Assembly (NCBI GenBank): GCA_041082215.1
Contig: JBDOIF010000149.1
Coordinates: forward strand, 1 to 58,559
Length of the DNA: 58,559 bases
Direction of reading: 5' to 3'
Origin: Anaerolineae bacterium
GTDB lineage: Bacteria > Chloroflexota > Anaerolineae > B4-G1 > DUEL01
A program made the translations under genes and the position numbers. A model generated the notes under the pieces. The model had not been told where the DNA came from and did no database searches. It worked only from the letters and a program-made list of their open reading frames with translations. Below are positions 31,836 to 48,820 of the stretch, one piece after another (positions within the stretch are counted from its first letter, which is position 1; the number at the start of each line of letters is the position of its first letter).

Positions 31836-33203
31836 CTACGGCCTCAACGGCTCGGCTGGGGATTCCAGCGTCGGCAGGAACTGCCCGCTCCCCGGGCCGG
31901 CCACGATCTCCCCCTGCCACAACACCCTGTGCCCCCGCTGGAAGGTCATCACCGGCCAGCCCAGGACAGCGCGCCCTTCGTACAGGGTGTAGCGGGCGTT
32001 GGTGTGCTGGTTCTCAGACCGGATGGTGAACGCCCGCGTCGGGTCAAACACCACCAGGTCGGCATCCGACCCCACAGCGACCGTCCCCTTGCGGGGATAG
32101 AGGCCGAAGATGCGGGCCGGGTTCTCGCAGAGCACCTGCACCAGCCGCACCAGGCTGATCCGCCCTCCGTTGACCCCTCCGTCGTAGGTCAGGGGCAGGA
32201 GCGTCTCGGCCTGGGGGGAGCCGAAGGGCTGCTCCAGGAAGTCGCCGTGGACGTCCTTGATCTTCGGCGCGTGGTCAGAAGCGACCGTCTGGATGGTCCC
32301 GTCCCGCAGGGCGGCCCACAACGCCTCCCGGTCCTCAGCGCTCCGGATCGGCGGCCCGATCTTGGCCAGCGCCCCCCGCTCCTCGATGATCTCCTGCGTC
32401 AGCGTGAGATACTGGGGACAGGTCTCGGCAAAGACAGGCAGCCCCTCCGCCTGCGCCTGTCGGATCGGCCGCAGCGACCGCGCTGCGGTGACATGGGGGA
32501 TATAAAGCCGGCAGCCCACCACCTCCGCCATCCGGATAGCGCGGAAGACCGCCTCCTCCTCCAGCGCGGCCGGACGGGTGGTGTTGAAATACCGGGCCGA
32601 GCGGTTCGGTCCCTTGAGGTACTTGTCCTCCAGATAGTCAATCCCCCCACCGTTCTCGGCGTGGACCATCGCCATCCCGCCCCGCTCGGCCAGGATGTCC
32701 ATCGCTTTGATCAACTGGTAGTCGTCGGTGTACCAGCCCTGTTTGAGATAGGTGAGGAAAAACTTGAACGTGCGGACCCCCAGCTCCATCACGCGGGGGA
32801 TCTCCGGGACCTGCCGGGGAGCCTCGAAGAGGCCTCCGTGGAGGCCGAAGTCGAGGCAGGAGTGGGCCAGCCCGTCCTCCAGCATCGCCTCGACCCGCTC
32901 CAGCAGGCTCTCCCCCGTGCGGGCGTAGACAAAATGAAGGAGGGTGGTCGTACCGCCGTAGGCCGCTACGCGGGAGCAGTCTTCCACCGTGTCCACATAG
33001 ACCGGGTGGACATGGACGTCAATAACGCCGGGAAGAATGTACATCCCCGACACATCCACCACCTCCCGCGCCCCCTCACGCGGCAGGTCCGGCCCGACAG
33101 CGCCGATCCGTTCCCCCCGGACCCCCACATCGGCCCGCTGGATGCCATGTCCGGTGACGACGATGCCGCCCGTCAGCAGTATGTCAAAGGAATTACCACT
33201 CAT
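31836..33203 (-). CDS. Cyclic amidohydrolase (dihydropyrimidinase / hydantoinase / allantoinase family)
   Basis: PGVIDVHVH, GGTTT, FKFF (carboxylated Lys), HAEN, PHV, ASDHAP and NPARIFGL. Confidence 0.9.
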   Translation of the reverse strand: MSGNSFDILLTGGIVVTGHGIQRADVGVRGERIGAVGPDLPREGAREVVDVSGMYILPGVIDVHVHPVYVDTVEDCSRVAAYGGTTTLLHFVYARTGESLLERVEAMLEDGLAHSCLDFGLHGGLFEAPRQVPEIPRVMELGVRTFKFFLTYLKQGWYTDDYQLIKAMDILAERGGMAMVHAENGGGIDYLEDKYLKGPNRSARYFNTTRPAALEEEAVFRAIRMAEVVGCRLYIPHVTAARSLRPIRQAQAEGLPVFAETCPQYLTLTQEIIEERGALAKIGPPIRSAEDREALWAALRDGTIQTVASDHAPKIKDVHGDFLEQPFGSPQAETLLPLTYDGGVNGGRISLVRLVQVLCENPARIFGLYPRKGTVAVGSDADLVVFDPTRAFTIRSENQHTNARYTLYEGRAVLGWPVMTFQRGHRVLWQGEIVAGPGSGQFLPTLESPAEPLRP

Positions 33204-33272
33204 CGTCCCTTCCCCGTCCTCGCAGGCGCAAGATATTGCAGCTTAACAGATTATTATGCCAGTAGCTGCACA

Positions 33273-33336
33273 ACCCTCACCCCTCCCCCTACCGGGAGGG
33301 GATGCCTGCCGCAGGCGGGCGGGGGTGGGGTGAGGG
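33273..33336. repeat. CCCTCACC...GGTGAGGG palindromic repeat, copy 2
   Basis: Inverted homolog of 26763-26853. Confidence 0.7.
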
Positions 33337-33351
33337 TCAAGTTTGGCTGCA

Positions 33352-35679
33352 TCAACTGGCCCGCTTCAATGCTTCCAGCACCCTTTCCGGTGTGATGGGC
33401 AACTCGCGGACGCGGACGCCGATCGCATCGGCGACGGCGTTGGCCACCGCCGCGGCGACCGGTGTGAGGGGAGGCTCGCCGATCCCCTTGGCCCCGAAAG
33501 GCCCCAGGCCGGTGCCCGACTCCAGCACGATCGCCTTTGTCGGGACAAAATCCATTGAGGTCGGGATCAGATACTCGGAGAGGGTCACGCTCTGAGGCCT
33601 CCCTTCCTTCACCACATACTCCTCCAGGAGGGCATACCCCAGCCCCTGGAAGCTGCCGCCTTCGATCTGCCCCTCCACCGCCGCCCGGTTGATCGCCCGC
33701 CCGACGTCGTGGCAGGCGACGTTCTTGAGCACCCTGACCTGGCCGGTCTCGGTGTCTACCGCTACCTCCACCGCGTGCGCGCCAAAAGTGAAGTCCGGAA
33801 AGACCCGCCCCTGGAGGTTCTCCGGGTCGAGGGGGTCGGTGAAGGGAGCCTTGAAGAGGGCCAGGTTGGAGAGCGGCAGTCCTTCGGCAGCGCACATCCG
33901 GACCAGTTCCGCCAGCGGCATGGATTCCTCCGGCCTGCCCCTGACAAACACACGCCCATCGGCCAGGTCCAGGTTGTCCGGCGGCTCCTCAAAATGCTTC
34001 GAGGCCCGGTCGAGCAGGACCCGGCGAACGGTGCTGGCGGCCTGGAGGACGGCGTTGCCGGACATATAGAGGCCCCGCGTGGCGGTTGAGGTGCCGGCCA
34101 GCGGCGTCAGGGCGGAGTCGGTGCTGTAGACCGTCACCTGCTCCAGCGGCACGCCGAGCACCTCGGCGGCGATCTGCGCCAGGCTGTTCACCTGCCCCGC
34201 CCCCAGCTCCGGGATGCCGGAACGGACCACCACCGTGCCGTCCAGCTCAAGCCCCACCCAGGCCTGGGAGGTGTCGTGGAGCCAGGTGATCCGACCGTAG
34301 CTCTGGAAGTAAGAGGCGAACCCCCATCCGATTTTGACCGGACCCTGGTCGGGTGTCTTTTCGCCCAGCGCCTCCAGCGCCCTGGAGGCCGTCTCCTCCA
34401 GCCAGACAGCGCTCTCGATCACCTGCCCGGTCGCGGTCTGGTCGCCCGTCCGCAGATAATTGATGCGGCGAAACTCCAGGGGGTCCATATCCAGCGCCCT
34501 GGCGATCTCGTCCATCTGCTGCTCGTAGGCGAAGGCGGCCTGCGGCCCTCCAAACCCCCGGAAGGCGCTGGTGAACGGGTTGTTCGTGGCGACGGTCACG
34601 CCGTCCACCCGGACATTGGGGATGCGGTAGGGGCCGGTGGCCATCACGACGGCGTAGAGCAGCACGTAGGGGCTGAGGTAGGGGTAGGCCCCGGCGTCGG
34701 AGATCATCTCGATCTCAGCGGCGGTGATCCGGCCATCCCGTCTCACGCCGGTGCGGTGGGTGATGATGAATGGGTGCCGCTTGGAGTGGGCGATGAGGGA
34801 CTCCTCGCGGGTGTAGACAAGCCGTACCGGACGGCGGGTGTGTTTGGCCAGCAGAGCCAGGAAAATTTCGACGGTGATGTCCTCCTTGCCGCCGAATCCC
34901 CCGCCCAGCATTGTGCCGATGATGTGGATTTTGTTGTGCGGCACGCCGACCGCCCGCGCGATGCTGCGGAAGTGCTCGACCACCTGGGTGGAGACGCGGA
35001 TGTTGATCACGCCCCGCTCGTCCACCCAGGCCACCCCTCCCTCCGGCTCGATATAGGCGTGGTCCACAAAGGGAACCCGGTAGGTGTTCTCCACGACCAG
35101 GTCGGCCATCTCCATCCCGGCCCGGACATCCCCCTTGCGGATCTTCCACCGGGCGACGATGTTATCCGGCTCATACACGACGGGCGCGCCAGGTTTCATC
35201 GCCTCGATGGGGTCGAACACCCCGGGGAGCGGCTCGTACTCGATTTCGATCAACTCCAGCGCCCGCTCGGCGATCTCCGGCGTCTCCGCCGCCACAAGGG
35301 CGATCGGTTCACCCACGTACCGCACCCGGTCACTGGCCAGCACCGGGGCTTCCGAACCCTTTCGGACCCTCTGGCCGGTCTGGCCGGGGATGTCGGTGAT
35401 CAACCGGCTGTCCGGCAGGTCCTCCGCCGTCAGCACGCAGGCCACGCCGGGGAGCGCCCGCGCCCTGCTCACGTCCAGCCGCCGGATGCGGGCCGACGGC
35501 TCCGTGCTGCGGAAGACCCGGGCGTGGAGCATATGCGGCATAAAGAAATCCCCGGCGTACACCGTTGCGCCGGTCGCCTTCCCCAGCGCATCCACCCGGC
35601 GCAGGGGCTTGCCCACCAGACGAAGCTCAGGCAGCTCCACAGGGGGGAGGGGCTTGGCCGTGTACCGCTTTTTCCTCAT
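33352..35679 (-). CDS. Xanthine dehydrogenase-family molybdopterin-binding subunit (A)
   Basis: GGGFGGK, AFRGFGGPQ, GQIEGG and catalytic-Glu motif GAKGIGEPP. Start ATG 35679 after SD GGAGG. Confidence 0.92.
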   Translation of the reverse strand: MRKKRYTAKPLPPVELPELRLVGKPLRRVDALGKATGATVYAGDFFMPHMLHARVFRSTEPSARIRRLDVSRARALPGVACVLTAEDLPDSRLITDIPGQTGQRVRKGSEAPVLASDRVRYVGEPIALVAAETPEIAERALELIEIEYEPLPGVFDPIEAMKPGAPVVYEPDNIVARWKIRKGDVRAGMEMADLVVENTYRVPFVDHAYIEPEGGVAWVDERGVINIRVSTQVVEHFRSIARAVGVPHNKIHIIGTMLGGGFGGKEDITVEIFLALLAKHTRRPVRLVYTREESLIAHSKRHPFIITHRTGVRRDGRITAAEIEMISDAGAYPYLSPYVLLYAVVMATGPYRIPNVRVDGVTVATNNPFTSAFRGFGGPQAAFAYEQQMDEIARALDMDPLEFRRINYLRTGDQTATGQVIESAVWLEETASRALEALGEKTPDQGPVKIGWGFASYFQSYGRITWLHDTSQAWVGLELDGTVVVRSGIPELGAGQVNSLAQIAAEVLGVPLEQVTVYSTDSALTPLAGTSTATRGLYMSGNAVLQAASTVRRVLLDRASKHFEEPPDNLDLADGRVFVRGRPEESMPLAELVRMCAAEGLPLSNLALFKAPFTDPLDPENLQGRVFPDFTFGAHAVEVAVDTETGQVRVLKNVACHDVGRAINRAAVEGQIEGGSFQGLGYALLEEYVVKEGRPQSVTLSEYLIPTSMDFVPTKAIVLESGTGLGPFGAKGIGEPPLTPVAAAVANAVADAIGVRVRELPITPERVLEALKRAS

Positions 35680-35689
35680 CGTCCACCTC

Positions 35690-36184
35690 CTACTCCGGCT
35701 TCGCAGGGGAAGCGGCGGGGCTGATCTTCTCCGCTGCAACCTGAATTGCCTGGATGATCTTGGCGTAGCCCGTACACCGGCACAGGTTGCCGGAGATCCC
35801 CTCCCGAATCTGCTCCTCAGTGGGATAGGGGGTCCGATCCAGGAGTGCTTTGGCGGCAATGAGCATGCCGGGCGTGCAGTAGCCGCACTGGACCGCGCCC
35901 ACGTCGGCGAAGGCCTCCTGGAGTGGATGGGGGTGCTCCGCCGTCCCCAGGCCGGCGGCGGTGAGGACCTCCGCCCCATCGGCCTGCCAGGCCAGCACCA
36001 GGCAACTATTGACCGCGCGGCCGTTCAGGAGCACCGCGCAGGCCCCGCAATCCCCCTTCTCGCAGCCGTCTTTGACGTCTATGTATCCCATCTGTCGCAG
36101 GGCGTGGAGCAGCGTCACGTTGGGCTTGAGCGCGACATGGTGGGTATGGCCATTTACGGTCAGGGTAATCAGTTTGGGTTCCAT
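35690..36184 (-). CDS. XDH-family (2Fe-2S) subunit
   Basis: GCEKGDCGAC...NSC, QCGYCTPG and GNLCRCTGY. Confidence 0.93.
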   Translation of the reverse strand: MEPKLITLTVNGHTHHVALKPNVTLLHALRQMGYIDVKDGCEKGDCGACAVLLNGRAVNSCLVLAWQADGAEVLTAAGLGTAEHPHPLQEAFADVGAVQCGYCTPGMLIAAKALLDRTPYPTEEQIREGISGNLCRCTGYAKIIQAIQVAAEKISPAASPAKPE

Positions 36185-36189
36185 AGGAC

Positions 36190-37059
36190 TTACTCCGTAC
36201 TGCGTGCTGCGCACTCCGTGAGGGTCCTTCGGACCATCACTTCTGTCACATGTCGCCGGTAGGTGGCCGAGCCGCGAATGTCGTCTATGGGGCGGGTGGC
36301 TTCGGCCGCCAGCCGGGCCGCCTCGGCAATGGGCTCTGGCTCCGGCAGCCGCCCCTCCAGCGCCGCCTCCGCCTGGCAGGCCCGGATAGGTGTGGGGGCC
36401 ACGGAGCCGAGGGCGATACGGACCAGGCGGCAGCGGCCACTCTCATCGCGGTCCATCCGCACCGCCCCACTGGCGACGGCGATGGCATCCGCTTCCCGCA
36501 GCCCGATCTTGTAGAAGGCCGTCACGCTGCGGGGAGGGGGAAGCGGGACGCGCACCCCGGTGACCAGCTCGTGGGGCTGACGGACGGTCCGGCGCACGCC
36601 GAGAAAGAAATCCCTGAGCAACACCCGGCGCGTTCCCTGGTTGCTGGCCAGCTCGACCTCGGCATCCAGCGCCAGAAGCGGGGGGGCCATATCGGCGGCG
36701 GGGGAGGCGTCGGCCAGGTTCCCCGCCACCGTCGCCCGGTTGCGGACCAGGGGGTTGCCCAGGAGGGCAGCCGCCTCCCTCAGCACCGGGGCGTACTGAG
36801 CGACCAGGGGGTCATCCAGCACCTGTGCCACGGTCACCCCGGCCCCGATCACCAGCCAGCCGTCCTCCCGACGAATGGCCTGAAGCTCCAGCAGGGAGGC
36901 GACGTTCACCACCCAGCGGAGTCGGTAGCGGCCGGACCGCATATCCGGGATCAGGTTGGTCCCTCCCGCTACCGGCATCACGTCCGGCGCATGCTCGGCC
37001 AGCATCTCCAGCGCCTCCGGAAGCGTCCGGGGCATCAGAAGTTCGAATTCGGGCAACAT
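36190..37059 (-). CDS. XDH-family FAD-binding subunit
   Basis: AGGTNL, VRNRATVAGN, ASPAAD and DDIRGSATYR. Confidence 0.92.
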   Translation of the reverse strand: MLPEFELLMPRTLPEALEMLAEHAPDVMPVAGGTNLIPDMRSGRYRLRWVVNVASLLELQAIRREDGWLVIGAGVTVAQVLDDPLVAQYAPVLREAAALLGNPLVRNRATVAGNLADASPAADMAPPLLALDAEVELASNQGTRRVLLRDFFLGVRRTVRQPHELVTGVRVPLPPPRSVTAFYKIGLREADAIAVASGAVRMDRDESGRCRLVRIALGSVAPTPIRACQAEAALEGRLPEPEPIAEAARLAAEATRPIDDIRGSATYRRHVTEVMVRRTLTECAARSTE

Positions 37060-37095
37060 GGGCGCCTCCTCTACGCGAACTCGGAAAGTAACAGA

Positions 37096-38526
37096 TTACT
37101 GCTTCCCCATTATCGCCCGCACAATGGCCGCGTAACCTGTGCAGCGACAGAGGTTCCCTTTTAAATAGTCGCGGACCTCTGCCTCGGTGGGCGTGGGGTT
37201 TTCCTCCAGCAGGCTTTTGGCCGTGATGAGCATCCCTGGCGTGCAGAAGCCGCACTGGAAAGCCGCGTGCTCGATGAACGCCTCCTGCAGCGGGTCGAGT
37301 TCGCCATCCGGCCCAGCCAGCCCCTCCACCGTGAGCACCTCGCTCCCGTCCACAGCGACCGCCAGCACCAGGCAGGAGAGAGCCAGCTTTCCATCTATGC
37401 GCACGGTGCAGGCCCCGCACTCGCCGATCCCGCAGCCGTACTTGGAGCCGGTGAGGTGGAGCCGCTCCCGCAGGACGTTGAGGAGCAGTTCGTTGGGCGC
37501 TACCCAGAGCCGATGCACCTCGCCGTTCACCTTCAACGTGATCTCGCACCGCTCATCCGCCGCCACTCGCTTCCCCTCTCCCGCCTCCTGCTCCCTGCCT
37601 CCTGACTCCTGACCCCCGACTCTTGCTTCCTGCTTCCTGTTTCCAGCCTCTCCTGCCCGCCGCCACGCCTCATACAGCCCGTCGTGGACCATCACCCGCA
37701 CGATTTCCCGCCGATACCAGGCATCCGAACGGACGTCGTCTATAGGGGAGACCTCCTCGGAGGCGATCCCCGCCACCTCGGCCACCACCTCCTCCGTGAG
37801 GGGCCGACCCACCAGCGCCGCTTCTGCCCTCCGTGCCCGGACCGGTGTGGGAGCCACCGCTCCGAAAGCCAGCCGGGCCCCGGCGATCCGGTCCCCCTCC
37901 CGCACTACCCGCACCGCCGCGTTGACCTTCGCCAGGTCGGCAGCAACACGGGAGACCTTGAGGAACGCGCTGCCGGAGGACGCTGGCGGACGGGGGAGGA
38001 CCACGCCTGTGATCAGCTCACCGCGCCCCAACGCCGTCCGACCCGGCCCGAGGAAGAATTCCTCCACCGGCATCCGCCGCTCCCCCCCCGGCCCTTCGAT
38101 CACCACCTCGGCGTCGAAGGCGATGAGGGCAGGGGCGGAGTCGGAGGCGGGGGAGCCGTTCCCCAGATTTCCGCCGATCGTGCCCTGAACCTGCACCTGG
38201 GTGGTGCTGAAGGAGGCGCAGGCCTCGGCCAGGGCGGGGTACTGAACCTGAATCCAGGGGTGATTGCGGATCGTGCGGATCGGGGTCCGAGCGCCGATCC
38301 AGGTATGGTCGTCGCGGACATCAATGCCCGAAAGACCCGGCACACGGCGGAGGCTGATCAGGCAGCGGGGGGCCAGCCGTTCCATCTTCATATGGACCAG
38401 CAGGTCGGTCCCACCGGCCAGCACCCGCGCCTGCTCACCGTGCTCCTCCAGCAAAGCGACCGCCTCCTGAAGCGTCGTCGGCTCCAGGTAGTCGAAGGCG
38501 TGCACAAGAATGTGTGTGTTCGTCAT
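37096..38526 (-). CDS. XDH-family fused FAD-binding and (2Fe-2S) subunit
   Basis: FAD domain (AGGTDL, GTIGGN, DDVRS), a repeat-derived linker, then GCGIGECGAC, QCGFCTPG and NLCRCTGY. Confidence 0.9.
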   Translation of the reverse strand: MTNTHILVHAFDYLEPTTLQEAVALLEEHGEQARVLAGGTDLLVHMKMERLAPRCLISLRRVPGLSGIDVRDDHTWIGARTPIRTIRNHPWIQVQYPALAEACASFSTTQVQVQGTIGGNLGNGSPASDSAPALIAFDAEVVIEGPGGERRMPVEEFFLGPGRTALGRGELITGVVLPRPPASSGSAFLKVSRVAADLAKVNAAVRVVREGDRIAGARLAFGAVAPTPVRARRAEAALVGRPLTEEVVAEVAGIASEEVSPIDDVRSDAWYRREIVRVMVHDGLYEAWRRAGEAGNRKQEARVGGQESGGREQEAGEGKRVAADERCEITLKVNGEVHRLWVAPNELLLNVLRERLHLTGSKYGCGIGECGACTVRIDGKLALSCLVLAVAVDGSEVLTVEGLAGPDGELDPLQEAFIEHAAFQCGFCTPGMLITAKSLLEENPTPTEAEVRDYLKGNLCRCTGYAAIVRAIMGKQ

Positions 38527-40903: not shown

Positions 40904-40990
40904 CCCCAGTCACCCAGTCACCCAATCACCCAGTCGCCCAATTACCCAATCACCTGGTCACCCACTGGTTACTTGGTCACTGGGTTACTC
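40904..40990. repeat. Octamer tandem repeat (CCCARTCA-like) followed by inverted copies
   Basis: cccagtca cccagtca cccaatca cccagtcg cccaatta cccaatca cctggtca, then tggttact tggtcact gggttact. The same unit recurs at 41947-41973. Confidence 0.85.
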
Positions 40991-41909
40991 CCATCACCAA
41001 CGCGATCAACGCCATCCGCACATAGACACCGTTGCGGGCCTGGCGGAAGTAGGCGGCGTTGGAAAGCCCGTCCACATCCGGCGCGATCTCGTCCACCCGG
41101 GGGAGGGGATGCATCACCGTCACGTCAGGGTTGACCCGCTCGATCATCTCCCGGGTGAGGATATAACTCCCCTTGAGCCGCTCGTACTCAGCGGGGTCGG
41201 CGAAGCGCTCCTTCTGGATGCGGGTCATATAGAGGACATCGGCCTCCGCCAGCGCTGCCTCCAGGTCCGTCGTCTCCTCCACCCGCACCCCTTCAGACCG
41301 CAGCGCGGCGACCATCTCGGCGGGCATCCGCAGCGGCTCGGGGCTGACCAGGATGAGGCGGCAGTTGTAGTGGCGGTACAACTGGACCCCGGAGTGGACA
41401 GTGCGGCCGTACTTCAGGTCGCCGCAGAGGACGATGGTCAGGCCATCCACCCTGCCTCGCTCGGAGCGGATCGTGTAGAGGTCCAGCAGCGCCTGGGTGG
41501 GGTGCTGTCCGGCCCCGTCGCCGCCGTTGATGACGGGATGCCCGGCCACATCCGCCGCCACCTGCGCCGAGCCGATCTGGGGGTGGCGGATGACGATGAG
41601 ATCGGCGTACTGGTCCACCGTGCGGACCGTATCGGCCAGCGTCTCCCCCTTTGCCACGGAGGTGGACTCCGCCGAAGAGAAGCCGACGACGCTCCCGCCC
41701 AGCCGGTGCATGGCAGTTTCGAAGGAAAGGCGGGTTCGGGTGCTGGGTTCGAAGAAGAGCGTTGCCATCACGAACCCCCTCATCAGATCCAGCGACTGCA
41801 CCCTCTCCAGCCGCCCGCGGAACTCCTCGGCCACATCCATCACATATTCCATCTCCTCACGGGTAAACTGTGCCCCGTTGAGGATATCCTTGCCCTTCAA
41901 GCTGACCAT
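40977..41909 (-). CDS. pyrB: Aspartate carbamoyltransferase catalytic subunit
   Basis: FFEPSTRT, SVAKGE, IRHP, HPTQALLD, GDLKYGRTVHS, TRIQKER and HPLP; both carbamoyl-phosphate and aspartate-binding residues are present. Confidence 0.92.
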   Translation of the reverse strand: MVSLKGKDILNGAQFTREEMEYVMDVAEEFRGRLERVQSLDLMRGFVMATLFFEPSTRTRLSFETAMHRLGGSVVGFSSAESTSVAKGETLADTVRTVDQYADLIVIRHPQIGSAQVAADVAGHPVINGGDGAGQHPTQALLDLYTIRSERGRVDGLTIVLCGDLKYGRTVHSGVQLYRHYNCRLILVSPEPLRMPAEMVAALRSEGVRVEETTDLEAALAEADVLYMTRIQKERFADPAEYERLKGSYILTREMIERVNPDVTVMHPLPRVDEIAPDVDGLSNAAYFRQARNGVYVRMALIALVMGVTQ

Positions 41910-41965
41910 AAGAGGAACCTCCTTGAAAATGCAAGAGGCAAGATACAAGTCGCCCAGTCACCCAG

Positions 41966-43060
41966 TCACCCAGCAACCCTCTGCGCAACCGACGCCAGGC
42001 GTGCCACACCCTCGCGGATCTCCTCCGGCGTGAGGGAGCAGAAGGGGATGCGGACGAAGCCGTCTCCGCCGCTGTTGGCAAAGAAGCAGCGGCCATCGGT
42101 CAGCCGCAGGCCGGCTTCCTGTGCCCGCCGGAGCAGCTCCTCCGCCCGCCCCGCGCCGTTCAGGTACACCCCCACAAAGAAGCCCCCATCAGGCCGGTGC
42201 CAGGACGCCTTCCCGCTCAGGTATTCCTCCAGCGCCTTCAGCGTCGCTTCCAGCCGGGGGCGGTAGAGGGATTTCAGGTACTCCAGTTGCGGTTCCAGCC
42301 ACCCCCGCCGGATGAACTCGTACACAATGGCCTGGTTGAGGTAACTGGTATTGATGTAGGAATCTTCCGCCGCCATCACCAGGTCCTCCACCAGGACCTC
42401 CGGTGCGACAGCATAGCCAACGCGCAGCCCCGGGCTGATCAGTTTGCTATAGGAGAAAATCTGGATCACCCGGTCAGGGGCCAGGTCGAAGAGCGTGGGC
42501 AATTCCTCCCCCCGGTAGCGAAGGTGGCGGTAGGGGACATCCTCCACGATCCAGAAGCCATACTTCTGCGCCAGGCGGACGAGCTGTTCCCGCTTGGGTA
42601 GCGAAAGGACCGTCCCGGTGGGGTTCTGGAAGTCGGGGATCAGGTAGAAGAAGACGGGCCGTTCCCCCTGCTTCAACCGGTCCTCCACCGCCTCCACATC
42701 CACGCCGTCGTCGGCGACGGGGAACCCCACCACACAGGCCCCCGCCCGCCGTAACAGGGCCAGGGTCCGGTCATACGTCGGCTCCTCCACATAGACCGGG
42801 TCCCCTGGCTTCAGAAGCGTCCGCGCACAGAGGTCCTGCAGGTTAAGGGACCCCTGTCCAACGATGATCCGCCCGGCGTCGGTGTTGACCTCACAGGCGA
42901 GCATTTCCCTTAATGGGGGATAGCCACTGGCTTTGCCATACTGGAGGACCACAGCGCCGTCCTCTGCCAGCGCAACGTCGGCACAGGCCCGCAGCCGGTC
43001 CACAGGAAAGGCCTCCACCGGAGGTACGCCACGGGTCAGTTGGATCCATTCTCGCGTCAT
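41966..43060 (-). CDS. Class I/II PLP-dependent aminotransferase (LysN/ARO8-like)
   Basis: EEPTY, IPDFQNPTG, VEDVPY and SYSKLISPGLRVGY. Confidence 0.88.
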   Translation of the reverse strand: MTREWIQLTRGVPPVEAFPVDRLRACADVALAEDGAVVLQYGKASGYPPLREMLACEVNTDAGRIIVGQGSLNLQDLCARTLLKPGDPVYVEEPTYDRTLALLRRAGACVVGFPVADDGVDVEAVEDRLKQGERPVFFYLIPDFQNPTGTVLSLPKREQLVRLAQKYGFWIVEDVPYRHLRYRGEELPTLFDLAPDRVIQIFSYSKLISPGLRVGYAVAPEVLVEDLVMAAEDSYINTSYLNQAIVYEFIRRGWLEPQLEYLKSLYRPRLEATLKALEEYLSGKASWHRPDGGFFVGVYLNGAGRAEELLRRAQEAGLRLTDGRCFFANSGGDGFVRIPFCSLTPEEIREGVARLASVAQRVAG

Positions 43061-43070: not shown

Positions 43071-43781
43071 TCACAGGCCCAGGTAGTGTTTCTTGATATG
43101 CTCGTTGCCAGTCAGTTCGCTGCCCGTTCCCTCCATCACGATCCGTCCGTTCTCCAGGACGTAGGCTCGATCAGCCAGTTTGAGGCCGTAGTGGACATTT
43201 TGTTCGACCAGCAACACCGTGAGACCCCGTTCTCGAAGCAGGTGCAGCCTCTCGTAGATCGCATCCACCAGTTTCGGCGCCAGGCCCAGGGAAGGCTCAT
43301 CAAGCATCAGGAACTTTGGGCAGGAGGCCAGGCCGCGGCCGATGGCTAACATCTGCTTCTCACCACCGCTAAGGGTCCGGGCCAACTGGTCACGCCGCTC
43401 GGCCAGGATAGGGAACATCTCATAGACCTCGTCGAGGATCCCCAAACGCAGGCCTTTCCGGTTGCCATAGGCGCCCATCAACAGGTTTTCGTGGACGCTC
43501 ATATTGGGGAATAGACGGCCACCTTCAGGCACATGGGCAACGCCCGCCCGGGTCACACGATGGGAGGGCCAGCCCTCGATGTTATGACCCTCCAGGACGA
43601 TCTCGCCGGAGGTCGGCCGGATCAGCCCGGAGATGGTCTTGAGGAGGGTGGTCTTCCCCGCACCGTTGGGGCCGATGATCGCCACCACCTCCCCATTCCC
43701 GACATGGAAAGTGACGTCCCGCAGGACCGGGACCTTTCCGTAGCCAGCGCAGAGTCCCTTAACCTGCAGCAGGTCGCTCAT
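43071..43781 (-). CDS. Liv-type ABC transporter ATPase (LivF-like)
   Basis: GPNGAGKTT, LSGGEKQ, LDEPSLGLAP and LVEQN. Confidence 0.92.
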   Translation of the reverse strand: MSDLLQVKGLCAGYGKVPVLRDVTFHVGNGEVVAIIGPNGAGKTTLLKTISGLIRPTSGEIVLEGHNIEGWPSHRVTRAGVAHVPEGGRLFPNMSVHENLLMGAYGNRKGLRLGILDEVYEMFPILAERRDQLARTLSGGEKQMLAIGRGLASCPKFLMLDEPSLGLAPKLVDAIYERLHLLRERGLTVLLVEQNVHYGLKLADRAYVLENGRIVMEGTGSELTGNEHIKKHYLGL

Positions 43782-44509
43782 CGCACAGCCCCTTCTCCCA
43801 GGTAGGCTTCGATCACCCGAGGATCGTTGCCGACCTCTTCAGGGGTTCCCTCAGCAATGAGGGAGCCGGCATCGAGGACGAATATCCGCTCGCAAAGCCC
43901 CATCACCATCTGCATAACATGCTCGACCACGCAGAGGGTAACCCCCTGTTCTTCATTCAGCCGCCGCAGGATACCCATCAGTTCGGACAGCTCGGTCGCT
44001 GTTAACCCCGCTCCGGCCTCGTCCAGTAGCAGGAGATCTGGCTCTGTAGCCATCGCCCGGGCCAGTTCAACCCGTCGAAGGGAAGCCAGGCCCAGGTCAC
44101 TGCACTTCTGATGCCGAATCTCATCCAGACGGCAGAAGGCGAGGACCTGTTCCACCTTTTCCATCACGTCGCCCTCCCCGTGCCGATTATACGCTCCGAC
44201 CCGCACAGTCTCTTCTACAGTCATCCCGGTGAAGGCCCTCGTTACCTGGAAGGTACGAGACATGCCCATCTTGCAGATCGTATGCGGCGGAGCACCCGTG
44301 ATATCGGTCCCTTTAAAAACCACGCGCCCTGCGTCGGGCATATGCAGCCCGGTGATCGAGTTAAAGAGAGTTGTCTTCCCCGCGCCGTTGGGACCGATCA
44401 GGCCGACGATCTTTCCCTCAGCGATTTCCAGGCTGACGTTATGGACCGCGACGAGGTTCCCGAAACGCTTGGTCAGATTATACACCTGTAGAATCGGCTT
44501 TGACGACAT
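43778..44509 (-). CDS. Liv-type ABC transporter ATPase (LivG-like)
   Basis: GPNGAGKTT, RTFQ, LLDEAGAG, VEHVM and VIEAYLG. Confidence 0.92.
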   Translation of the reverse strand: MSSKPILQVYNLTKRFGNLVAVHNVSLEIAEGKIVGLIGPNGAGKTTLFNSITGLHMPDAGRVVFKGTDITGAPPHTICKMGMSRTFQVTRAFTGMTVEETVRVGAYNRHGEGDVMEKVEQVLAFCRLDEIRHQKCSDLGLASLRRVELARAMATEPDLLLLDEAGAGLTATELSELMGILRRLNEEQGVTLCVVEHVMQMVMGLCERIFVLDAGSLIAEGTPEEVGNDPRVIEAYLGEGAVR

Positions 44510-45500
44510 GATCGCTCCTCGTCACCTTCGAGATCACCCAATGGTAACCATCCTGCAAGAAAGTCGCGATCCCCTGAGGACGGAAGAGGGCGATGACGAT
44601 GAGGACGACGGCATAGATAGCCAGGTACAGGCTCTCCAAATGACCACCCAGGTTGGCTCGCAGGAACTCCCGCATCGAAACGAGAAAGATGGCCGCGACC
44701 AGCGGGCCGTAGGTGATCCCCATCCCGCCGACGATGCCCAGGATCGCCACCTCTGTACTTGCCGGGCTGCTGAAAAAGTTGGGGTGGATAAAGCCATACA
44801 TGCAGGAATAGATCGCCCCCACCACGCCAACGATGAAGGCGTAGATCATCAGCGCTTTCAGTTTACACGTGCGAGCGTCAACGCCGAGAACTTCCGCAGC
44901 ATCCTCGTCCTCCCCCAGCGCCCGGAGATAAAACCCCAGTCGGGTCCGGCTCAGGTGGCGATTGACGAGCACCGCGACAACGAGAAAAGCGAGCAAGATG
45001 TAGTAGTAAGGCAGGTAGGTGCCGAAGCGCAGATGATAGAGGGAGAAATCGTAGTAGGGAAGGTACCGCTCCACCGGCCCTCCCACTTCCTCCCACATCA
45101 CGAATGCCACCTTAAGCACTTCGACAAGGGCCGCCGAGGTCAGTGCGTACCAGACCTCGCGTACCCGGAACCGGAAGAGGGGGAACCCAACCAGGACAGC
45201 GAAACCGGTTGCCACCAGCCCGCCGAGGATCATCCCCAGCCACGGCGAGATGTTCCACCGGATGAGGAGTGTACCCGAGGTAAAAGCGCCAAGTCCCAGA
45301 TAGGCAAAGGCAGCCAGGTCCAGTTGCCCCGCCATCCCTCCGATAATGTTCCAGGCAGTAGCAAGGACAGCGTAGAGCAGGACCGTGGTCACAAGCACCA
45401 GATTGTACTGATTCGAGCCGATGAGGAGGGGAACGGCGAGGGCGACCGTCAGGGCCACACCCAACAGCGCGCGGTTTATGGCTTTCCACCTGTTGCTCAC
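44478..45500 (-). CDS. Liv-type ABC permease (LivM-like)
   Basis: GTG at 45500 overlaps the upstream stop; WNIIGGMAGQ, GEDEDAAEVLGV and IVGGMG. Confidence 0.88.
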   Translation of the reverse strand: MSNRWKAINRALLGVALTVALAVPLLIGSNQYNLVLVTTVLLYAVLATAWNIIGGMAGQLDLAAFAYLGLGAFTSGTLLIRWNISPWLGMILGGLVATGFAVLVGFPLFRFRVREVWYALTSAALVEVLKVAFVMWEEVGGPVERYLPYYDFSLYHLRFGTYLPYYYILLAFLVVAVLVNRHLSRTRLGFYLRALGEDEDAAEVLGVDARTCKLKALMIYAFIVGVVGAIYSCMYGFIHPNFFSSPASTEVAILGIVGGMGITYGPLVAAIFLVSMREFLRANLGGHLESLYLAIYAVVLIVIALFRPQGIATFLQDGYHWVISKVTRSDHVVKADSTGV

Positions 45501-46360
45501 TATTTCCTCCCGAAAAGCCCGCGGGGCCGGATCCACAGAGCCAGGATGAAGATAAGGTAGACCACGAGGGACCGCGCCCGGGGATCCCAGAGAGTCATTG
45601 AGATGGACTCCGCCGCACCGACAATAAGGCCAGAAATGAGGAGCCCGGGGATGGACCCCAGACCCGCCAGGGCCAGCACACACCAGCTCAACAGCCCGAA
45701 GCGGAGGCCCATGGTTGGATCCACCTGCTGAAAGGTCATCAACAAACCACCGGCGATGGCCGTCAGAGCCGAGCCCAGGCCAAACGCCAGTGCATAGATC
45801 GAGCGGTAACTCACACCCATCAGTGAAGCTGCGTCCAGATCATCAGACGCAGCGCGGATAGCCCGCCCCGGCCATGTCTTGCTGAGAAAGAGGGAGACCC
45901 CTCCGATAACAACGATACTGACCGCAGCCGAGATCAGTCGGGAGAACATGAAGTTATACGCGCCGATGTGGAAACTCCCCTGGATAACAGAATACGGCAG
46001 GGCCCGCGGCTGCGCCTTCCAGACCAACTGGGCAATAGCTCGCAATAACGTCATCAATCCCACCGTCACCGCGATCTGCGTCACATACTTCTGGCGGAGT
46101 GTACCGTCAATGAGGAGGTAGTAGGCCGCGATGCCGAAGATAAAAAGGAGCGGCAGGGTAATGGCAGGCGTAAAGACAGCATCTACCCCCCAGGTCGAGC
46201 CGATGAGGAAGGAGAAATACATCGAGAGCATGACGAAGTCACCATGAGCGAAGTTGACGACGTTCATTACGCCGAAGATGAGGGACAGTCCCAGCGTGAT
46301 GAGGGCATAGACACACCCCATCAACGCTCCATTGAGGATGCTCTGCACGACAATATCCAC
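45500..46360 (-). CDS. Liv-type ABC permease (LivH-like)
   Basis: GLSLIFGVMNVVNFAHG, GRAIRA and RPRGLFG. Confidence 0.9.
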   Translation of the reverse strand: MDIVVQSILNGALMGCVYALITLGLSLIFGVMNVVNFAHGDFVMLSMYFSFLIGSTWGVDAVFTPAITLPLLFIFGIAAYYLLIDGTLRQKYVTQIAVTVGLMTLLRAIAQLVWKAQPRALPYSVIQGSFHIGAYNFMFSRLISAAVSIVVIGGVSLFLSKTWPGRAIRAASDDLDAASLMGVSYRSIYALAFGLGSALTAIAGGLLMTFQQVDPTMGLRFGLLSWCVLALAGLGSIPGLLISGLIVGAAESISMTLWDPRARSLVVYLIFILALWIRPRGLFGRK

Positions 46361-46496
46361 CGTTCCTCCCTGACCATACCGGGTTGTGGGGGTCTGCCCG
46401 GCCGCCAGCGGGTCCGGTATCCCACCAGGCGGCCGAGCAGACGGGATTGCCGGATATACCGAGTCGCCTCTGGTTCACCAACTGACGATAGGGGCA

Positions 46497-47771
46497 CTAG
46501 TACTTCGCGTCGGGCCGCGGGAAAACAAACTCCGCTTCCGCAGCGGCGAACGGCCAGACCACCTTCGGCTCACCATTGATCACCTGCATAATGGTGGCGA
46601 CAGCGTAGGGGTTGTCCCCTGTCCCGGTGAAGGTGATCCGATCCCCAGGGTAGGTCTCAACAGCCGGGCCGGAGGTCAGGTCCAGATGCAGGAAAGCATC
46701 CCGCAAGTTGTCCGGGTTTAGCGGATCATCGGGGTGCAACTGACCGGACAGTTCAAGGGCCTCCTTCAACACCCACATCGCGTAATAGTTCATCCCCGCA
46801 GCCTCGGTGGGGATATGGCCGGTCTCAGCGATGAAGTCCTCGACAAACCGGCGGTTCTGGGGCGTATCCTTGGCCGGGTTATAGCTATAGGTATTGCTGT
46901 AGTACTCGGCTGTTTCGCCCAGCGCTTCGATGGACTCCGGATCGGTATAGCCACAAGCGCCCATACCAGAGATAAACTTGGGGATCTCGCCCGTCTCGCG
47001 GAAAGTGTTGGCAAAGAGAATCGCGTCCATGAAATACGGGCAGTGGATCACGGCATCGGGTCGCGCGGCTGCGATCTCGTTGACGATCGAGGAGACATCG
47101 GCAATGTCGAAGGGGTACTCCTTCTGATAGACGATGGTCAGCCCGTTGTCCAGTGCCGCCTGCATCGCGCCTGTGGCGTTGCTGCGCCCAAAGGACGAGT
47201 CCTCGTTCAGAATGGCGATCCGCTCGATCGAGACGCCCGTCTGCTGGGCTGCTTCAACGACGAACTGGACAGCCGAAGCGCCGTGCTGGCTGGCCTTAGG
47301 AGCGGGGCGGAACAGATAACGGCGGCCCATCTGCGTCACGCTATCCACCAGCGCATCAGCGATCAGGATGACCTTCTCGCGCTCAGTGACCTCGGAGGCA
47401 GCGACCGTAAGGCGGCTGATATAGAGGCCGAGGATAGCCACCGGGTGGTGCTTGCTGATAATGCTCTCGGCACCCAGGCGTGCGCTGTCCGCTGTCTCCC
47501 CGGCATCCTCCACCACCAGCTCCAGCGGAATGCCGCCCAGGGACTGAATGCCGCCTGCCTCATTGATGTGACGGATAGCGATCTCCATGCCGATCCTGGC
47601 CTCGGTGCCGAAGACCGCGTGCGCGCCGGTCAGCGGCTCCAGACAACCGACGACGATCTTGTCGGGTAACTCGGCTTTGCCGCCCTCCGGGGCCGCCGGG
47701 CCGCAGCCGCCCAGCACAAGGGCCAGGAGGACTATCGTTACCAGTGAAAAGCGAAAGAGTTTGGCAGACAT
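46497..47771 (-). CDS. Liv-type ABC substrate-binding lipoprotein
   Basis: Lipobox VLGGC; PLTGAHAVFG...INEAGGI. SD GGAGG before ATG 47771. Confidence 0.9.
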   Translation of the reverse strand: MSAKLFRFSLVTIVLLALVLGGCGPAAPEGGKAELPDKIVVGCLEPLTGAHAVFGTEARIGMEIAIRHINEAGGIQSLGGIPLELVVEDAGETADSARLGAESIISKHHPVAILGLYISRLTVAASEVTEREKVILIADALVDSVTQMGRRYLFRPAPKASQHGASAVQFVVEAAQQTGVSIERIAILNEDSSFGRSNATGAMQAALDNGLTIVYQKEYPFDIADVSSIVNEIAAARPDAVIHCPYFMDAILFANTFRETGEIPKFISGMGACGYTDPESIEALGETAEYYSNTYSYNPAKDTPQNRRFVEDFIAETGHIPTEAAGMNYYAMWVLKEALELSGQLHPDDPLNPDNLRDAFLHLDLTSGPAVETYPGDRITFTGTGDNPYAVATIMQVINGEPKVVWPFAAAEAEFVFPRPDAKY

Positions 47772-47903
47772 GGGTCCTCTCCTCCCAAAAGGGGAAACTG
47801 TGGAAATACTATCTGAACCCAATTAAGGCAATCTTTCTTCCAAAACTATACCGGTCCACCTCCTTTCAACGCCAGCAAGCCTTAGACCCCGCCGCCGACA
47901 GGA

Positions 47904-48731
47904 TCAGGAGAGGCACTCGGTCTCAGAAGATTGTCTTCGTCTCGCGGCATGCAGGGCCCGAGAACCCGTCGTAGCTCCCAGGAGCATAGAAATTCGGCTG
48001 GCCGTTTCCCAGCACAGACGAACAAATTCCTGTGCCCGCTCAGGGGTATAGCGGGAACGGGGGCCGGCCACACCGATGGCAGCCACAACCTGCCCATCCC
48101 GGTCAAAGATGGGCGTCGCCACTCCCCAGGCCCCCAGGTCGGTCTCTTCGTGGCTCTCGGCGTAGCCGTGCTCCCGGATGCGCGCCAGTTCGGCGTAAAG
48201 GGCCTCCGGGTCTGTGATCGTGTTGACGCATAGCCGAGGGAGCCCCTTCTCGCGGATGATGGCCTGAATCTCCTCCTCCGGCAGGTAGGCCATCAGGACT
48301 TTGGAGGAAGCACCCGCATGGGGTGGTCGGCGCATCCCCACATCCAGCGTCATCCGCACCGGATGGTCGGTCTCGACCCTCTCAATACACACCACCTCAA
48401 GCCCCTGATAGGCGGTGAGGATGACCGTCTCACCGGTGGCCGCTACCAATTCATCCATCACCGGACGGGCGATCTGGCGCAGGTCGAGGCTGTCTTTGGC
48501 CAGGCTCCCCCAGATGAGAAGATGGTAGCCGAGACGCCATCGTCGGTCTCGAGGGTCGTTGCGCAGGATGCCGTGGGACTCCAGCGCGGCGAGGAAACGG
48601 TGAAGGGTGCTTTTGGGGATGCCCAGCTCTTTGCTGAGCTCACTCAGGGACCAGGCCGGTCGTTCGCGGGTGAAACAATCCAGCACGCCAACCAGCCGAT
48701 CGATCGTCTTCACGGAAATTGCATCGCTCAT
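47904..48731 (-). CDS. IclR-family transcriptional regulator
   Basis: HTH LSELSKELGIPKSTLHRFL; GETVIL, HAGASSK and GYAES...GVATPIF. Confidence 0.93.
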   Translation of the reverse strand: MSDAISVKTIDRLVGVLDCFTRERPAWSLSELSKELGIPKSTLHRFLAALESHGILRNDPRDRRWRLGYHLLIWGSLAKDSLDLRQIARPVMDELVAATGETVILTAYQGLEVVCIERVETDHPVRMTLDVGMRRPPHAGASSKVLMAYLPEEEIQAIIREKGLPRLCVNTITDPEALYAELARIREHGYAESHEETDLGAWGVATPIFDRDGQVVAAIGVAGPRSRYTPERAQEFVRLCWETASRISMLLGATTGSRALHAARRRQSSETECLS

Positions 48732-48764
48732 GCTCTTCCGTAGAAGCGCTTTTTGCAGGAGGTT

Positions 48765-48820
48765 GTTCCACTATATAGAACGTTGTTCTAAATTATACCA
48801 CATCTTCTACCAATTGTCAA
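48765..48820 (-). promoter_or_regulatory. Consensus sigma70 promoter of iclR with downstream palindromic candidate operator
   Basis: TTGACA (48820-48815), 17 bp, TATAAT (48797-48792) with extended TG. Palindrome GTTC-N9-GAAC at 48765-48781. Confidence 0.8.

Follow-up and report, generated by a model that had tools for sequence, protein, structure and literature searches.

Introduction

The paired hydroxylases of the xanthine dehydrogenase (XDH) family that act on nicotinate and purines, and the molybdenum (Mo) hydroxylase and ring hydrolase of indoleacetate degradation, place an oxygen atom from water beside a ring nitrogen, after which the ring is opened by hydrolysis. In the orotate fermentation of Clostridium oroticum, which employs a dihydroorotase and a 5-carboxymethylhydantoinase, N-carbamoyl-aspartate is the hub between the six-membered dihydroorotate and the five-membered 5-carboxymethylhydantoin, and these two cyclic amides alone open to this compound. 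To our knowledge, no genes have been assigned to the carboxymethylhydantoinase of C. oroticum, and no Mo enzymes take part in that fermentation. A third precedent is the hydantoin-5-propionate amidohydrolase ErtD, a hydantoinase-family enzyme that opens a histidine-derived, carboxylate-bearing hydantoin; it is an amidase, rather than a carbamoyltransferase, that removes its product, N-carbamoyl-glutamate. Here, we analyzed a contig of 58,559 nucleotides (nt) from an Anaerolineae bacterium of the order Thermoflexales (JBDOIF010000149.1 of assembly GCA_041082215.1, the whole stretch being referred to as the window), in which 14 minus-strand genes include those of two XDH-family Mo enzymes, of a hydantoinase-like cyclic amidohydrolase, and pyrB, encoding an aspartate carbamoyltransferase (ATCase).

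The cluster resembles each of these systems in part. Its Mo enzymes share with the paired hydroxylases and the indoleacetate enzyme an identical domain architecture of Mo, flavin adenine dinucleotide (FAD), and iron-sulfur (FeS) modules, but their large subunits are distant from the solved members, and those pathways have no ATCase. The N-carbamoyl-aspartate hub would be common to the cluster and to C. oroticum. Like ErtD, the amidohydrolase would act on a histidine-derived hydantoin bearing a carboxylate; however, it scores 211–238 bits against the NCBIfam ErtD models, far below their cut-offs of 600–650, and it is accompanied by a carbamoyltransferase.

The arginine deiminase, agmatine deiminase, and ureidoglycine routes offer a parallel for the proposed last steps, since a ureido compound is cleaved there with phosphate by a carbamoyltransferase and the carbamoyl phosphate is turned into ATP by carbamate kinase. 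Passages of a 2018 review name the ornithine, putrescine, and ureidoglycine enzymes as the established catabolic transcarbamylases and take a neighboring carbamate kinase gene as the sign that a transcarbamylase is catabolic (PMC6022934). The cluster differs in that it uses an ATCase, which is the only copy of its genome, and carbamate kinase is adjacent in one locus only of a related sister cluster. The ureidoglycine carbamoyltransferase of Rubrobacter and the idea of a reaction module come from Barba et al. (2013), part of whose text describes a cyclic amidohydrolase followed by a carbamoyltransferase, catabolic and beside xanthine-dehydrogenase-type genes (PMC4016543). This order of enzymes is the same as here, but the Rubrobacter module starts from purines or allantoin and relies on a new transferase family, whereas the cluster has a standard ATCase and an amidohydrolase that, by score, is not allantoinase-like. 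Finally, in part of a study on Thermococcus, an archaeal route is proposed that converts histidine to imidazole-4-acetate with formation of ATP (PMC9986279). It uses three enzyme types that we also found linked to the cluster, namely a HisC- or class I-type aminotransferase, an oxidoreductase of the IOR family, and an ADP-forming acyl-CoA synthetase; in that part of the study, the route is traced to 2-(imidazol-4-yl)acetate only, whereas the Mo enzymes, the hydantoinase-like enzyme, and the ATCase of the cluster would carry it further.

We propose that the clustered genes act as a single unit under IclR control and break down an imidazole-type N-heterocycle, most likely histidine-derived imidazole-4-acetate, in an oxygen-independent manner. 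We put the probability of this reading at roughly 0.4, and the identity of the histidine- or imidazole-acetate-type substrate is its least secure part. The enzyme families are all known and the logic is like that of known heterocycle fermentations; the novelty lies in their combination, together with a linked gene module and a sister cluster devoid of Mo genes. A preliminary description of the locus had seen no characterized pathway in it, and in the open full-text literature (subscription journals lay outside the search) we likewise found no account of this set of genes, of an ATCase with a catabolic role, or of imidazole-acetate degradation by Mo enzymes.

Results

Conservation of the Gene Core

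Species-representative genomes were scanned with MoB, the molybdopterin-binding large subunit of the first Mo enzyme. Among the 54 loci obtained, 53 carried an orthologue at at least 60% identity; the protein of the remaining locus (L100, 36%) is a paralogue and was set aside. Neighbors were counted only at loci with enough flanking DNA to judge. In 35 of 42 loci, MoB was directly preceded by pyrB, and in 45 of 47, it was directly followed by a gene fusing FAD-binding and 2Fe-2S modules. MoA, the large subunit of the second Mo enzyme, was encoded downstream of MoB in 30 of 32 loci, the amidohydrolase lay at most 4.5 kb past MoA in 10 of 16, and an IclR-family regulator stood upstream of MoB in 23 of 39. 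The conserved core is iclR, pyrB, MoB, the FAD/2Fe-2S fusion, a FAD subunit, a 2Fe-2S subunit, MoA, and the amidohydrolase, and it recurs across 53 species-level loci, far more often than chance would give, so that the conserved co-occurrence expected from the preliminary description was indeed found. The same description had treated a Liv-type transporter and an aminotransferase as members of the cluster on an equal footing. As the Liv binding protein was present in 9 and the aminotransferase in 13 of the 53 loci, these genes are accessories rather than part of the core.

The Two Molybdenum Enzymes

Both Mo enzymes are complete, each comprising a Mo large subunit, a FAD module, and two 2Fe-2S domains according to Pfam, and all their genes lie on the minus strand. 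In the first, MoB (38,523–40,892; Ald_Xan_dh_C, MoCoBD_1, and MoCoBD_2) is followed, with a 4-nt overlap, by its partner, in which FAD and FeS modules are fused (37,096–38,526; FAD_binding_5, CO_deh_flav_C, Fer2, and Fer2_2). The second is made of a FAD-binding subunit (36,190–37,059) and a 2Fe-2S subunit (35,690–36,214), both assigned by Pfam, and of MoA, whose open reading frame (ORF) spans 33,352–35,979 and whose likely start is an ATG at 35,679 behind an AGGAGG-type site. MoA and MoB are about 36% identical and are therefore two different enzymes, as had been surmised at the outset.

Neither large subunit reached the cut-off of any of the 13 named NCBIfam models (xanthine dehydrogenase, 4-hydroxybenzoyl-CoA reductase, CO dehydrogenase, and aldehyde oxidoreductase). 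MoB scored 513 bits against its top XdhA models, with cut-offs of 780 and 916, and MoA 556 bits against the pucD model, with a cut-off of 784. The nearest solved relative of both in the PDB is 4-hydroxybenzoyl-CoA reductase (311 bits for MoB, to the alpha subunit, and 358 bits for MoA). In four loci (L062, L084, L093, and L096), an inserted gene separates the FAD/FeS fusion from the FAD subunit; its product, of about 398 residues and with a 4Fe-4S dicluster domain, may be an electron-transfer partner.

The ATCase Gene and Its Lineage

The pyrB ORF covers 40,977–41,948 on the minus strand, with a likely ATG start at 41,909. Its product passed the equivalog cut-offs of TIGR00670 (380 bits, cut-off 236.95) and NF002032 (336 bits, cut-off 263) and aligned over its full length to the ATCase of Pyrococcus abyssi (1ML4, E 6e-112, residues 17–321). 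The stretches STRTR, HPTQ, RIQKER, and HPLPR, which we take to be the binding motifs for carbamoyl phosphate and aspartate, are identical in the two proteins. On the strength of these matches, the assignment made in the preliminary description holds, and the pyrB product can be considered a bona fide ATCase, which makes N-carbamoyl-aspartate a probable intermediate.

In a tree of 62 ATCases, from which two distant carbamoyltransferases and frameshifted matches were left out, 40 Mo-linked pyrB sequences formed one clade with a Shimodaira–Hasegawa-like approximate likelihood ratio (SH-aLRT) of 93, under the mark of 95. The clade excludes the copies from pyr operons and other contexts, including those of four genomes from the window's own family. 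Thus, the cluster appears to travel as a unit with its own pyrB lineage, the native copy being gone wherever the cluster is present.

The Amidohydrolase

The last gene of the cluster (31,836–33,203, minus strand) encodes a hydantoinase/dihydropyrimidinase-like cyclic amidohydrolase according to its Pfam, NCBIfam, and PDB matches. It scored 380.4 bits against the dihydropyrimidinase/D-hydantoinase model TIGR02033, just under the cut-off of 393.25, compared with 216.8–216.9 bits against class I dihydroorotase (TIGR00857, pyrC_multi; cut-off 279.05) and 288 bits against allantoinase (cut-off 358). Its top PDB matches were D-hydantoinases at about 300 bits, and dihydroorotases reached about 157. 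A pattern of the carboxylated-lysine type (HVH 64–66, K147, H181, H237, and D310), whose residues we assume to form the metal site, is invariant in its clade. The protein lacks the HxHxR and MPN stretches of dihydroorotases, having HVHPVY and a stretch with Tyr93 and Arg95; the pyr-operon dihydroorotases of the class carry HVHLRxPG and MPNT, and the two stretches presumably hold the substrate carboxylate in those enzymes.

The tree of 30 cyclic amidohydrolases, built without matches of less than 85% coverage or with internal stops, united 17 window-type enzymes and three enzymes of the sister cluster in one clade (SH-aLRT 99). The dihydropyrimidinase of the host genome and the pyr-operon dihydroorotases fell outside this clade, and the window enzyme grouped with dihydropyrimidinases. 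Arg95 and Lys314 are invariant across the clade (23 sequences), and the corresponding residues of the host dihydropyrimidinase are Phe and Tyr; the alignment places Lys314 opposite the histidine in the dihydroorotase DHAPH stretch, a residue that, we assume, binds the substrate carboxylate. The pocket therefore looks adapted to a carboxylate-bearing cyclic ureide. Judged by score and tree, the enzyme belongs to the hydantoinase/dihydropyrimidinase branch, as the preliminary description had suggested, and not to the dihydroorotase branch, and it would represent a distinct clade that is always found near a pyrB. Its distribution is sporadic: among 151 Anaerolineae genomes (the class sample), nine have it at at least 56% identity.

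At this point, a fermentation of purines can be weighed, in which xanthine or purine dehydrogenases and an allantoinase-like amidohydrolase would precede a carbamoyltransferase acting on a purine-derived ureide, as in the ureidoglycine route or the ygeW-xdh region of E. coli. The top NCBIfam names of both large subunits are indeed xanthine dehydrogenase subunits, and a module of cyclic amidohydrolase, carbamoyltransferase, and carbamate kinase has been proposed for purine catabolism in part of the work of Barba et al. (PMC4016543). However, both Mo subunits lie far below every XDH equivalog cut-off, the allantoinase score falls short as well, and genes for uricase, allantoicase, or ureidoglycine metabolism did not appear beside the cluster. 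The carbamoyltransferase is a clear ATCase with its full-length match to 1ML4, and YgeW models gave it 41.6–45.5 bits where 453–500 are needed. We therefore regard the purine route as very improbable, and because the transferase is a true ATCase, an indoleacetate pathway was likewise set low.

The Linked Module

All ORFs of the 54 loci were clustered and representatives were scanned with profiles, which brought out four further linked genes. An iorA-like gene was present in 18 of 53 loci at at least 55% identity, and the others are iorB, the gene of an ADP-forming acyl-CoA synthetase, and that of an aminotransferase passing the hisC model (349 bits, cut-off 277). In the window, the iorA-like gene (29,215–31,131, minus strand; TPP_enzyme_C, POR_N, and Fer4) encodes a 2-oxoacid:ferredoxin oxidoreductase alpha subunit; it scored 587.7 bits against IOR_alpha (TIGR03336), below the cut-off of 650.9, and its domain make-up fits. 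It is 82% identical to the gene right after the amidohydrolase in L050. The preliminary description had closed the cluster at 31,836; the functional neighborhood extends to this gene, and the module of iorA, iorB, synthetase, and HisC-type aminotransferase had been missed.

The module follows the amidohydrolase in L050, L061, L064, L126, and others, the order in L126 being MoA, amidohydrolase, iorA, iorB, synthetase, and hisC-like gene. In L066, L073, and L083, it begins directly 3' of MoA, whose stop codon overlaps the next start codon, and there is no pyrB or amidohydrolase nearby; in L076 and L078, it lies upstream of IclR; and L114 has the hisC-like gene, the amidohydrolase, and pyrB in that order. 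The linked module points to an amino-acid origin, and more precisely a histidine origin, of the heterocycle. The gene hutU was not found in the host genome.

A Sister Cluster without Mo Genes

In three Anaerolineae genomes (loci L103, L104, and L105), we found a related cluster that has none of the Mo genes. It consists of a peptide-type ABC transporter, a DegT-type aminotransferase, iorA (about 40% identity to that of the window), iorB, a PF01177 racemase, the amidohydrolase (57%), an aminotransferase (52%), and pyrB (59%), the 52% aminotransferase homologue sitting between amidohydrolase and pyrB. An acyl-CoA synthetase gene (35%) is present in both loci that extend past pyrB, and L105 also has a VOC-family protein.

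The racemase gene stands beside the amidohydrolase gene in all three loci. The only solved relatives of its product are allantoin/hydantoin racemases and one epimerase (3QVJ, E 1e-46), with no aspartate or glutamate racemase among its PDB matches. The racemase-linked amidohydrolases are the nearest relatives of the window enzyme (clade support 99), and that of L105 passes TIGR02033 (413.4 bits, cut-off 393.25). In L105, a carbamate kinase gene follows the cluster (arcC, 410 bits, cut-off 358).

Proposed Pathway

From the gene content and the family assignments, we infer a substrate and an order of steps. The HisC-type aminotransferase, the IorAB-like oxidoreductase, and the ADP-forming acyl-CoA synthetase would convert histidine to imidazole-4-acetate with a gain of ATP; alternatively, the compound could be imported through the Liv-type transporter. 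The two XDH-family enzymes would then add oxygen from water at C2 and C5, the free ring carbons beside nitrogen, which by chemical reasoning would give 5-carboxymethylhydantoin. Hydroxylation of imidazole-4-acetate at C2 is formally like the conversion of xanthine to urate. The hydantoinase-like amidohydrolase would open the ring to N-carbamoyl-L-aspartate, which the ATCase may cleave with phosphate to aspartate and carbamoyl phosphate, pulled by carbamate kinase. Carbamoyl phosphate would be turned into ATP by the carbamate kinase of the genome or be used in arginine synthesis, the MocR-type aminotransferase would handle aspartate, and N-carbamoyl-aspartate from the pathway may feed pyrimidine synthesis directly. 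The oxidoreductase and the synthetase could act before the ring chemistry, as the HisC-type partner would favor, or after it, on the 2-oxo acid derived from aspartate, as the sister cluster would favor. In the imidazole-acetate scheme, none of the repeatedly linked genes is left without a function.

Of the two cyclic amides that lead to N-carbamoyl-aspartate, we prefer the hydantoin to dihydroorotate because the racemase of the sister cluster is of the hydantoin type by its nearest relatives and because orotate and dihydroorotate, by chemical reasoning, have no free ring C–H beside nitrogen. The opposite choice would make the locus a pathway of orotate-type pyrimidine catabolism, in which the amidohydrolase acts as a dihydroorotase in reverse, the ATCase also runs in reverse, and the Mo enzymes act on a pyrimidine precursor. 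Such a pathway would agree with the joint presence of an ATCase and a carboxylate-adapted cyclic amidohydrolase. A locus elsewhere in the class (L124, G055:C12, 4029–8672) has pyrB, an amidohydrolase of 37% identity, a pyrD-like gene, and carbamate kinase in a row, suggesting that pyrimidine enzymes may run in reverse in Anaerolineae. However, a Mo hydroxylase would find no free position on the ring, nothing resembling a dihydroorotate dehydrogenase gene is present within the Mo cluster or next to it, the sister-cluster racemase is of the wrong type, and the link to IorAB, the acyl-CoA synthetase, and the HisC-type aminotransferase would go unexplained. We consider this alternative improbable. 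L124 in its own right is a candidate cluster for the fermentation of orotate or dihydroorotate.

A Probable Role in Pyrimidine Synthesis

Several observations weigh against a purely catabolic cluster. The host genome (96% complete, 174 contigs) has a single match above the ATCase cut-off, the cluster pyrB, the next match reaching at most 160 bits. In the order sample, 16 cluster-bearing genomes (pyrB at at least 70% identity) have no second ATCase above 260 bits. The cluster pyrB, as the sole copy, must also serve pyrimidine synthesis, and a housekeeping role is unavoidable. No carbamate kinase gene is present in the window, the copy of the host being on contig C27, and in the sister cluster this gene is adjacent in just one of two loci (it is missing from L104, and L103 ends too early). 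No MoB orthologue was found in the four sister-cluster genomes searched, where the best matches had 36–40% identity, so that ring oxidation is unexplained there. In one genus (g5), the amidohydrolase gene is on a separate contig. In the host, contig C46 carries iorB, the synthetase gene, and the hisC-like gene as one group downstream of ftsA-ftsZ, and in the window, a toxin–antitoxin pair splits iorA from the operon. Finally, no type I or II dihydroorotase was found above cut-off in the host genome, in which the relevant enzymes are the cluster amidohydrolase and one dihydropyrimidinase.

Outside the class, a homologue of the amidohydrolase (52–53% identity) is followed directly by pyrB in six of six loci (L131–L136, labeled Atribacteria, Bipolaricaulota, Syntrophaceae, Thermotogae, and Chloroflexia, with one lacking a label), and the pyrB of the pair is the only high-scoring ATCase in each of the six genomes, an arrangement that resembles a normal pyrC-pyrB pair. 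The flanks are of sufficient length in L131, L133, and L134, and there the family-matched neighbors of the pair are unrelated to the cluster; in L135, a 2Fe-2S subunit gene precedes it. These genomes also hold other cyclic amidohydrolase paralogues, one of them just above the pyrC cut-off. To judge from this gene context, the amidohydrolase may possess dihydroorotase activity, and the pairs in other phyla are the strongest evidence for the view that amidohydrolase and pyrB are housekeeping genes.

According to this strong rival, pyrB and the amidohydrolase would be the ATCase and an unusual dihydroorotase of the lineage, and the Mo enzymes, the transporter, IorAB, and the acyl-CoA synthetase would belong to an unrelated catabolic operon, for amino acids or purines, that was inserted between them and passed on with them. 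The single ATCase and the pairs in other phyla fit it, and so does the pyrimidine background of the host. The pyrF, pyrE, and pyrD genes lie at two contig ends (C39/C136) without pyrB or pyrC, and the gene upstream of pyrF is divergent. Ordinary Anaerolineae have the order pyrC-pyrB-pyrF/E-pyrD or pyrB-pyrF-pyrE-pyrD-pyrC, with dihydroorotases that contain HxHxR. The basic residues of the pocket would equally suit dihydroorotate. Moreover, in the order sample, canonical pyrC (4 of 31 genomes) and the window-type enzyme (17 others) are mutually exclusive.

This complementarity was examined as a proof of dihydroorotase function and was rejected as such: it looked strict in the genomes of the order but broke down in the class sample, where an above-cut-off pyrC was found in 22 of 151 genomes, G093 and G179 have both pyrC and the window-type enzyme, and about 120 have neither. 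Anaerolineae usually have a short dihydroorotase, encoded beside pyrB, to which the pyrC model gives too low a score. The restriction of the enzyme to a few of the Anaerolineae genomes, its lack of HxHxR, its grouping with dihydropyrimidinases, and the hydantoin-type racemase beside its nearest relatives also speak against a housekeeping dihydroorotase. In addition, pyrB and the amidohydrolase gene are interleaved with IorAB, synthetase, and aminotransferase genes in at least four arrangements, which insertion alone does not explain, and the Mo-linked pyrB clade departs from the grouping by family. On balance, a cluster reduced to housekeeping plus an inserted operon is rather unlikely, although a housekeeping or dual pyrimidine role remains a strong competitor of our proposal. 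An extra catabolic pyrB kept beside a housekeeping copy was considered and rejected, since the cluster pyrB is the only ATCase; the 31 Thermoflexales genomes have at most one ATCase above 300 bits each, and the sole exception met was G034, with two ATCases.

The source of carbamoyl phosphate leads to a further alternative. For the host genome, the search for carB, which encodes the large subunit of carbamoyl-phosphate synthetase, was negative, the top match reaching 43 bits; the gene was found in two of 31 Thermoflexales and 79 of 151 Anaerolineae genomes. In organisms without this enzyme, the cluster might serve supply: the aminotransferase as a source of aspartate, ATCase, the amidohydrolase as dihydroorotase, and carbamate kinase as a source of carbamoyl phosphate would be biosynthetic, IorAB and the synthetase would work reductively toward a 2-oxo acid, and the Mo enzymes would be add-ons. 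The lack of carB in the host and in 29 of 31 genomes of the order favors this view, as does its presence in two of nine class-sample genomes with the window amidohydrolase compared with 77 of 142 without it. A bifunctional carbamate kinase has been proposed to stand in for carbamoyl-phosphate synthetase in Thermoflexus, in a genome paper whose main text makes no mention of xanthine, indolepyruvate, or hydantoin (PMC8129789). Likewise, an anabolic carbamate kinase is known from archaea lacking the synthetase, according to a passage of the 2018 review (PMC6022934). That the kinase may be anabolic in organisms lacking the synthetase is a further point against our proposal; it would then be the likely carbamoyl phosphate source where carB is missing. 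However, a supply cluster leaves two Mo hydroxylases, a hydantoin-type racemase, IclR, and an uptake system unexplained, the difference in carB comes from related genomes and small numbers, and genomes of the order without the cluster lack carB too. We find the supply cluster improbable. A tie between the cluster and carB loss was itself set aside as weak, given 2/9 against 77/142 in genomes that are related.

The host carbamate kinase (390 bits, cut-off 358) lies on contig C27 beside two tandem carbamoyltransferase genes and a GntR/HutC-like regulator (6140–10,091, L017). The tandem proteins fit no named model, the best being N-acetylornithine carbamoyltransferase (245 and 270 bits, cut-off 288), and a similar pair with a kinase occurs in G014 (L028). 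The second hydantoinase-like gene of the host, a dihydropyrimidinase (469.8 bits, cut-off 393.25), adjoins adenine deaminase on contig C161 (20,712–23,891, L014), with a DHO_dh-family gene about 8 kb away; these genes may be a set for reductive pyrimidine catabolism.

The preliminary description had postulated ring opening to N-carbamoyl-aspartate followed by phosphorolysis. The racemase in three of three sister loci and the adjacent carbamate kinase in one of two fit this sequence of reactions, whereas the sole ATCase, the missing canonical pyrB and pyrC, and the pairs in other phyla keep a biosynthetic or dual role in play. The interpretation given in that description is supported in part.

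Organization of the Locus

All 14 minus-strand genes were verified by ORF calls and by Pfam and NCBIfam scans, and they are as tightly spaced as first described. In the direction of transcription, they encode IclR, the binding protein, LivH, LivM, LivG, LivF, the aminotransferase, PyrB, MoB, the FAD/2Fe-2S fusion, the FAD subunit, the 2Fe-2S subunit, MoA, and the amidohydrolase. Starts were refined to start codons with ribosome-binding sites, which shortened four ORFs (MoA, pyrB, livM, and the binding protein) and gave a spacing from a 4-nt overlap up to 148 nt.

The regulator (47,904–48,731; HTH_IclR and IclR_C) has BhcR as its top NCBIfam match (191 bits, cut-off 350). Behind it come the Liv-type (Peripla_BP_6) substrate-binding protein assigned by Pfam (ORF 46,497–47,822, likely start 47,771), the permeases LivH (45,500–46,360) and LivM (ORF 44,478–45,683, likely start 45,500), and the ATPases LivG (43,778–44,509) and LivF (43,071–43,781), the four transporter subunits being identified by Pfam and NCBIfam. 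The aminotransferase (41,966–43,060; Aminotran_1_2) is of class I/II and of the MocR type without the DNA-binding domain, since it aligns to positions 95–447 of the 448-position PdxR model of NCBIfam. All of these genes are on the minus strand.

On the same strand, a sigma-70-like promoter was found 5' of iclR at 48,792–48,820 (TTGACA-17-TATAAT, 12 of 12 positions plus a TG extension), a consensus match that coincides with 48,820, where the preliminary description had set the end of the cluster. The region contains seven promoter-like sites compared with 2.7 ± 1.6 in shuffled sequences. A terminator scan gave 16 matches compared with 9.7 ± 3.3, and as these lie inside coding regions, they are uninformative on operon structure. 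Gene content, conservation, family assignments, and the uniqueness of the ATCase are observed; co-regulation of the genes and the catabolic direction of the ATCase reaction are inferred.

In one run of a hot-spring metatranscriptome (assembled contigs), pieces of 156–321 bases matched the window at at least 99% identity, with 0–2 differences, and mapped to iorA, the amidohydrolase gene, the FeS/MoA junction, the FAD/FeS fusion, MoB, and livG; strand and single transcript are not deducible from them. A near-identical organism was present in the library, and the pieces are weak evidence of expression, since carried-over DNA is possible.

The pair that separates the amidohydrolase gene from iorA is an MNT/HepT toxin–antitoxin pair (31,186–31,832, plus strand; NTP_transf_2 and HepT-like), which lies outside the pathway. 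It is absent at the same place in other loci, where iorA directly follows the amidohydrolase gene, and by this comparison, it appears to be an insertion. Divergently from iclR, the plus strand (49,135–57,334) carries a LacI regulator, a sugar ABC transporter, and a GH42 beta-galactosidase, apparently unrelated to the cluster.

In the genus g5, six loci (L027, L032, L035, L054, and others) contain, between the aminotransferase gene and pyrB, the gene of a 950-residue sensor kinase with an N-terminal seven-transmembrane region and PAS and GAF domains, which points to an additional level of control there. Five of the 54 MoB loci (L063, L069, L080, L089, and L094) and also L107 have, beside iclR or close to the cluster, a gene for a non-canonical methyltransferase of the MttB family, and seven MttB-family matches occur elsewhere in the host genome. 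It is speculation that this family provides a link to histidine betaine through quaternary-amine demethylation, which would fit the histidine idea.

Discussion

Taken at its widest, our proposal comprises a Mo-dependent, oxygen-independent degradation of the histidine imidazole ring in Thermoflexales and other Anaerolineae, an ATCase that, run in reverse, would be a fourth kind of catabolic transcarbamylase, and an intermediate and an enzyme shared with biosynthesis, from which both carbamoyl phosphate and the pyrimidine ring would be provided. This full combination is, in our estimation, rather unlikely to hold. A dual role in supply and breakdown would explain why the cluster pyrB displaces the native copy.

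Should amidohydrolase and pyrB turn out to be housekeeping genes, several phyla would use a hydantoinase-like enzyme as their dihydroorotase. That carB is missing order-wide is notable for annotation under either reading. If, on the other hand, the imidazole-acetate pathway is correct, it would assign genes to a gap in anaerobic amino-acid metabolism, namely the fate of the imidazole ring once imidazole-acetate has been formed, and would help to explain the nutrition of Thermoflexus. ATCase would then join the short list of catabolic transcarbamylases, and a central biosynthetic enzyme would be shared by synthesis and breakdown in a lineage that is mostly without carbamoyl-phosphate synthetase.

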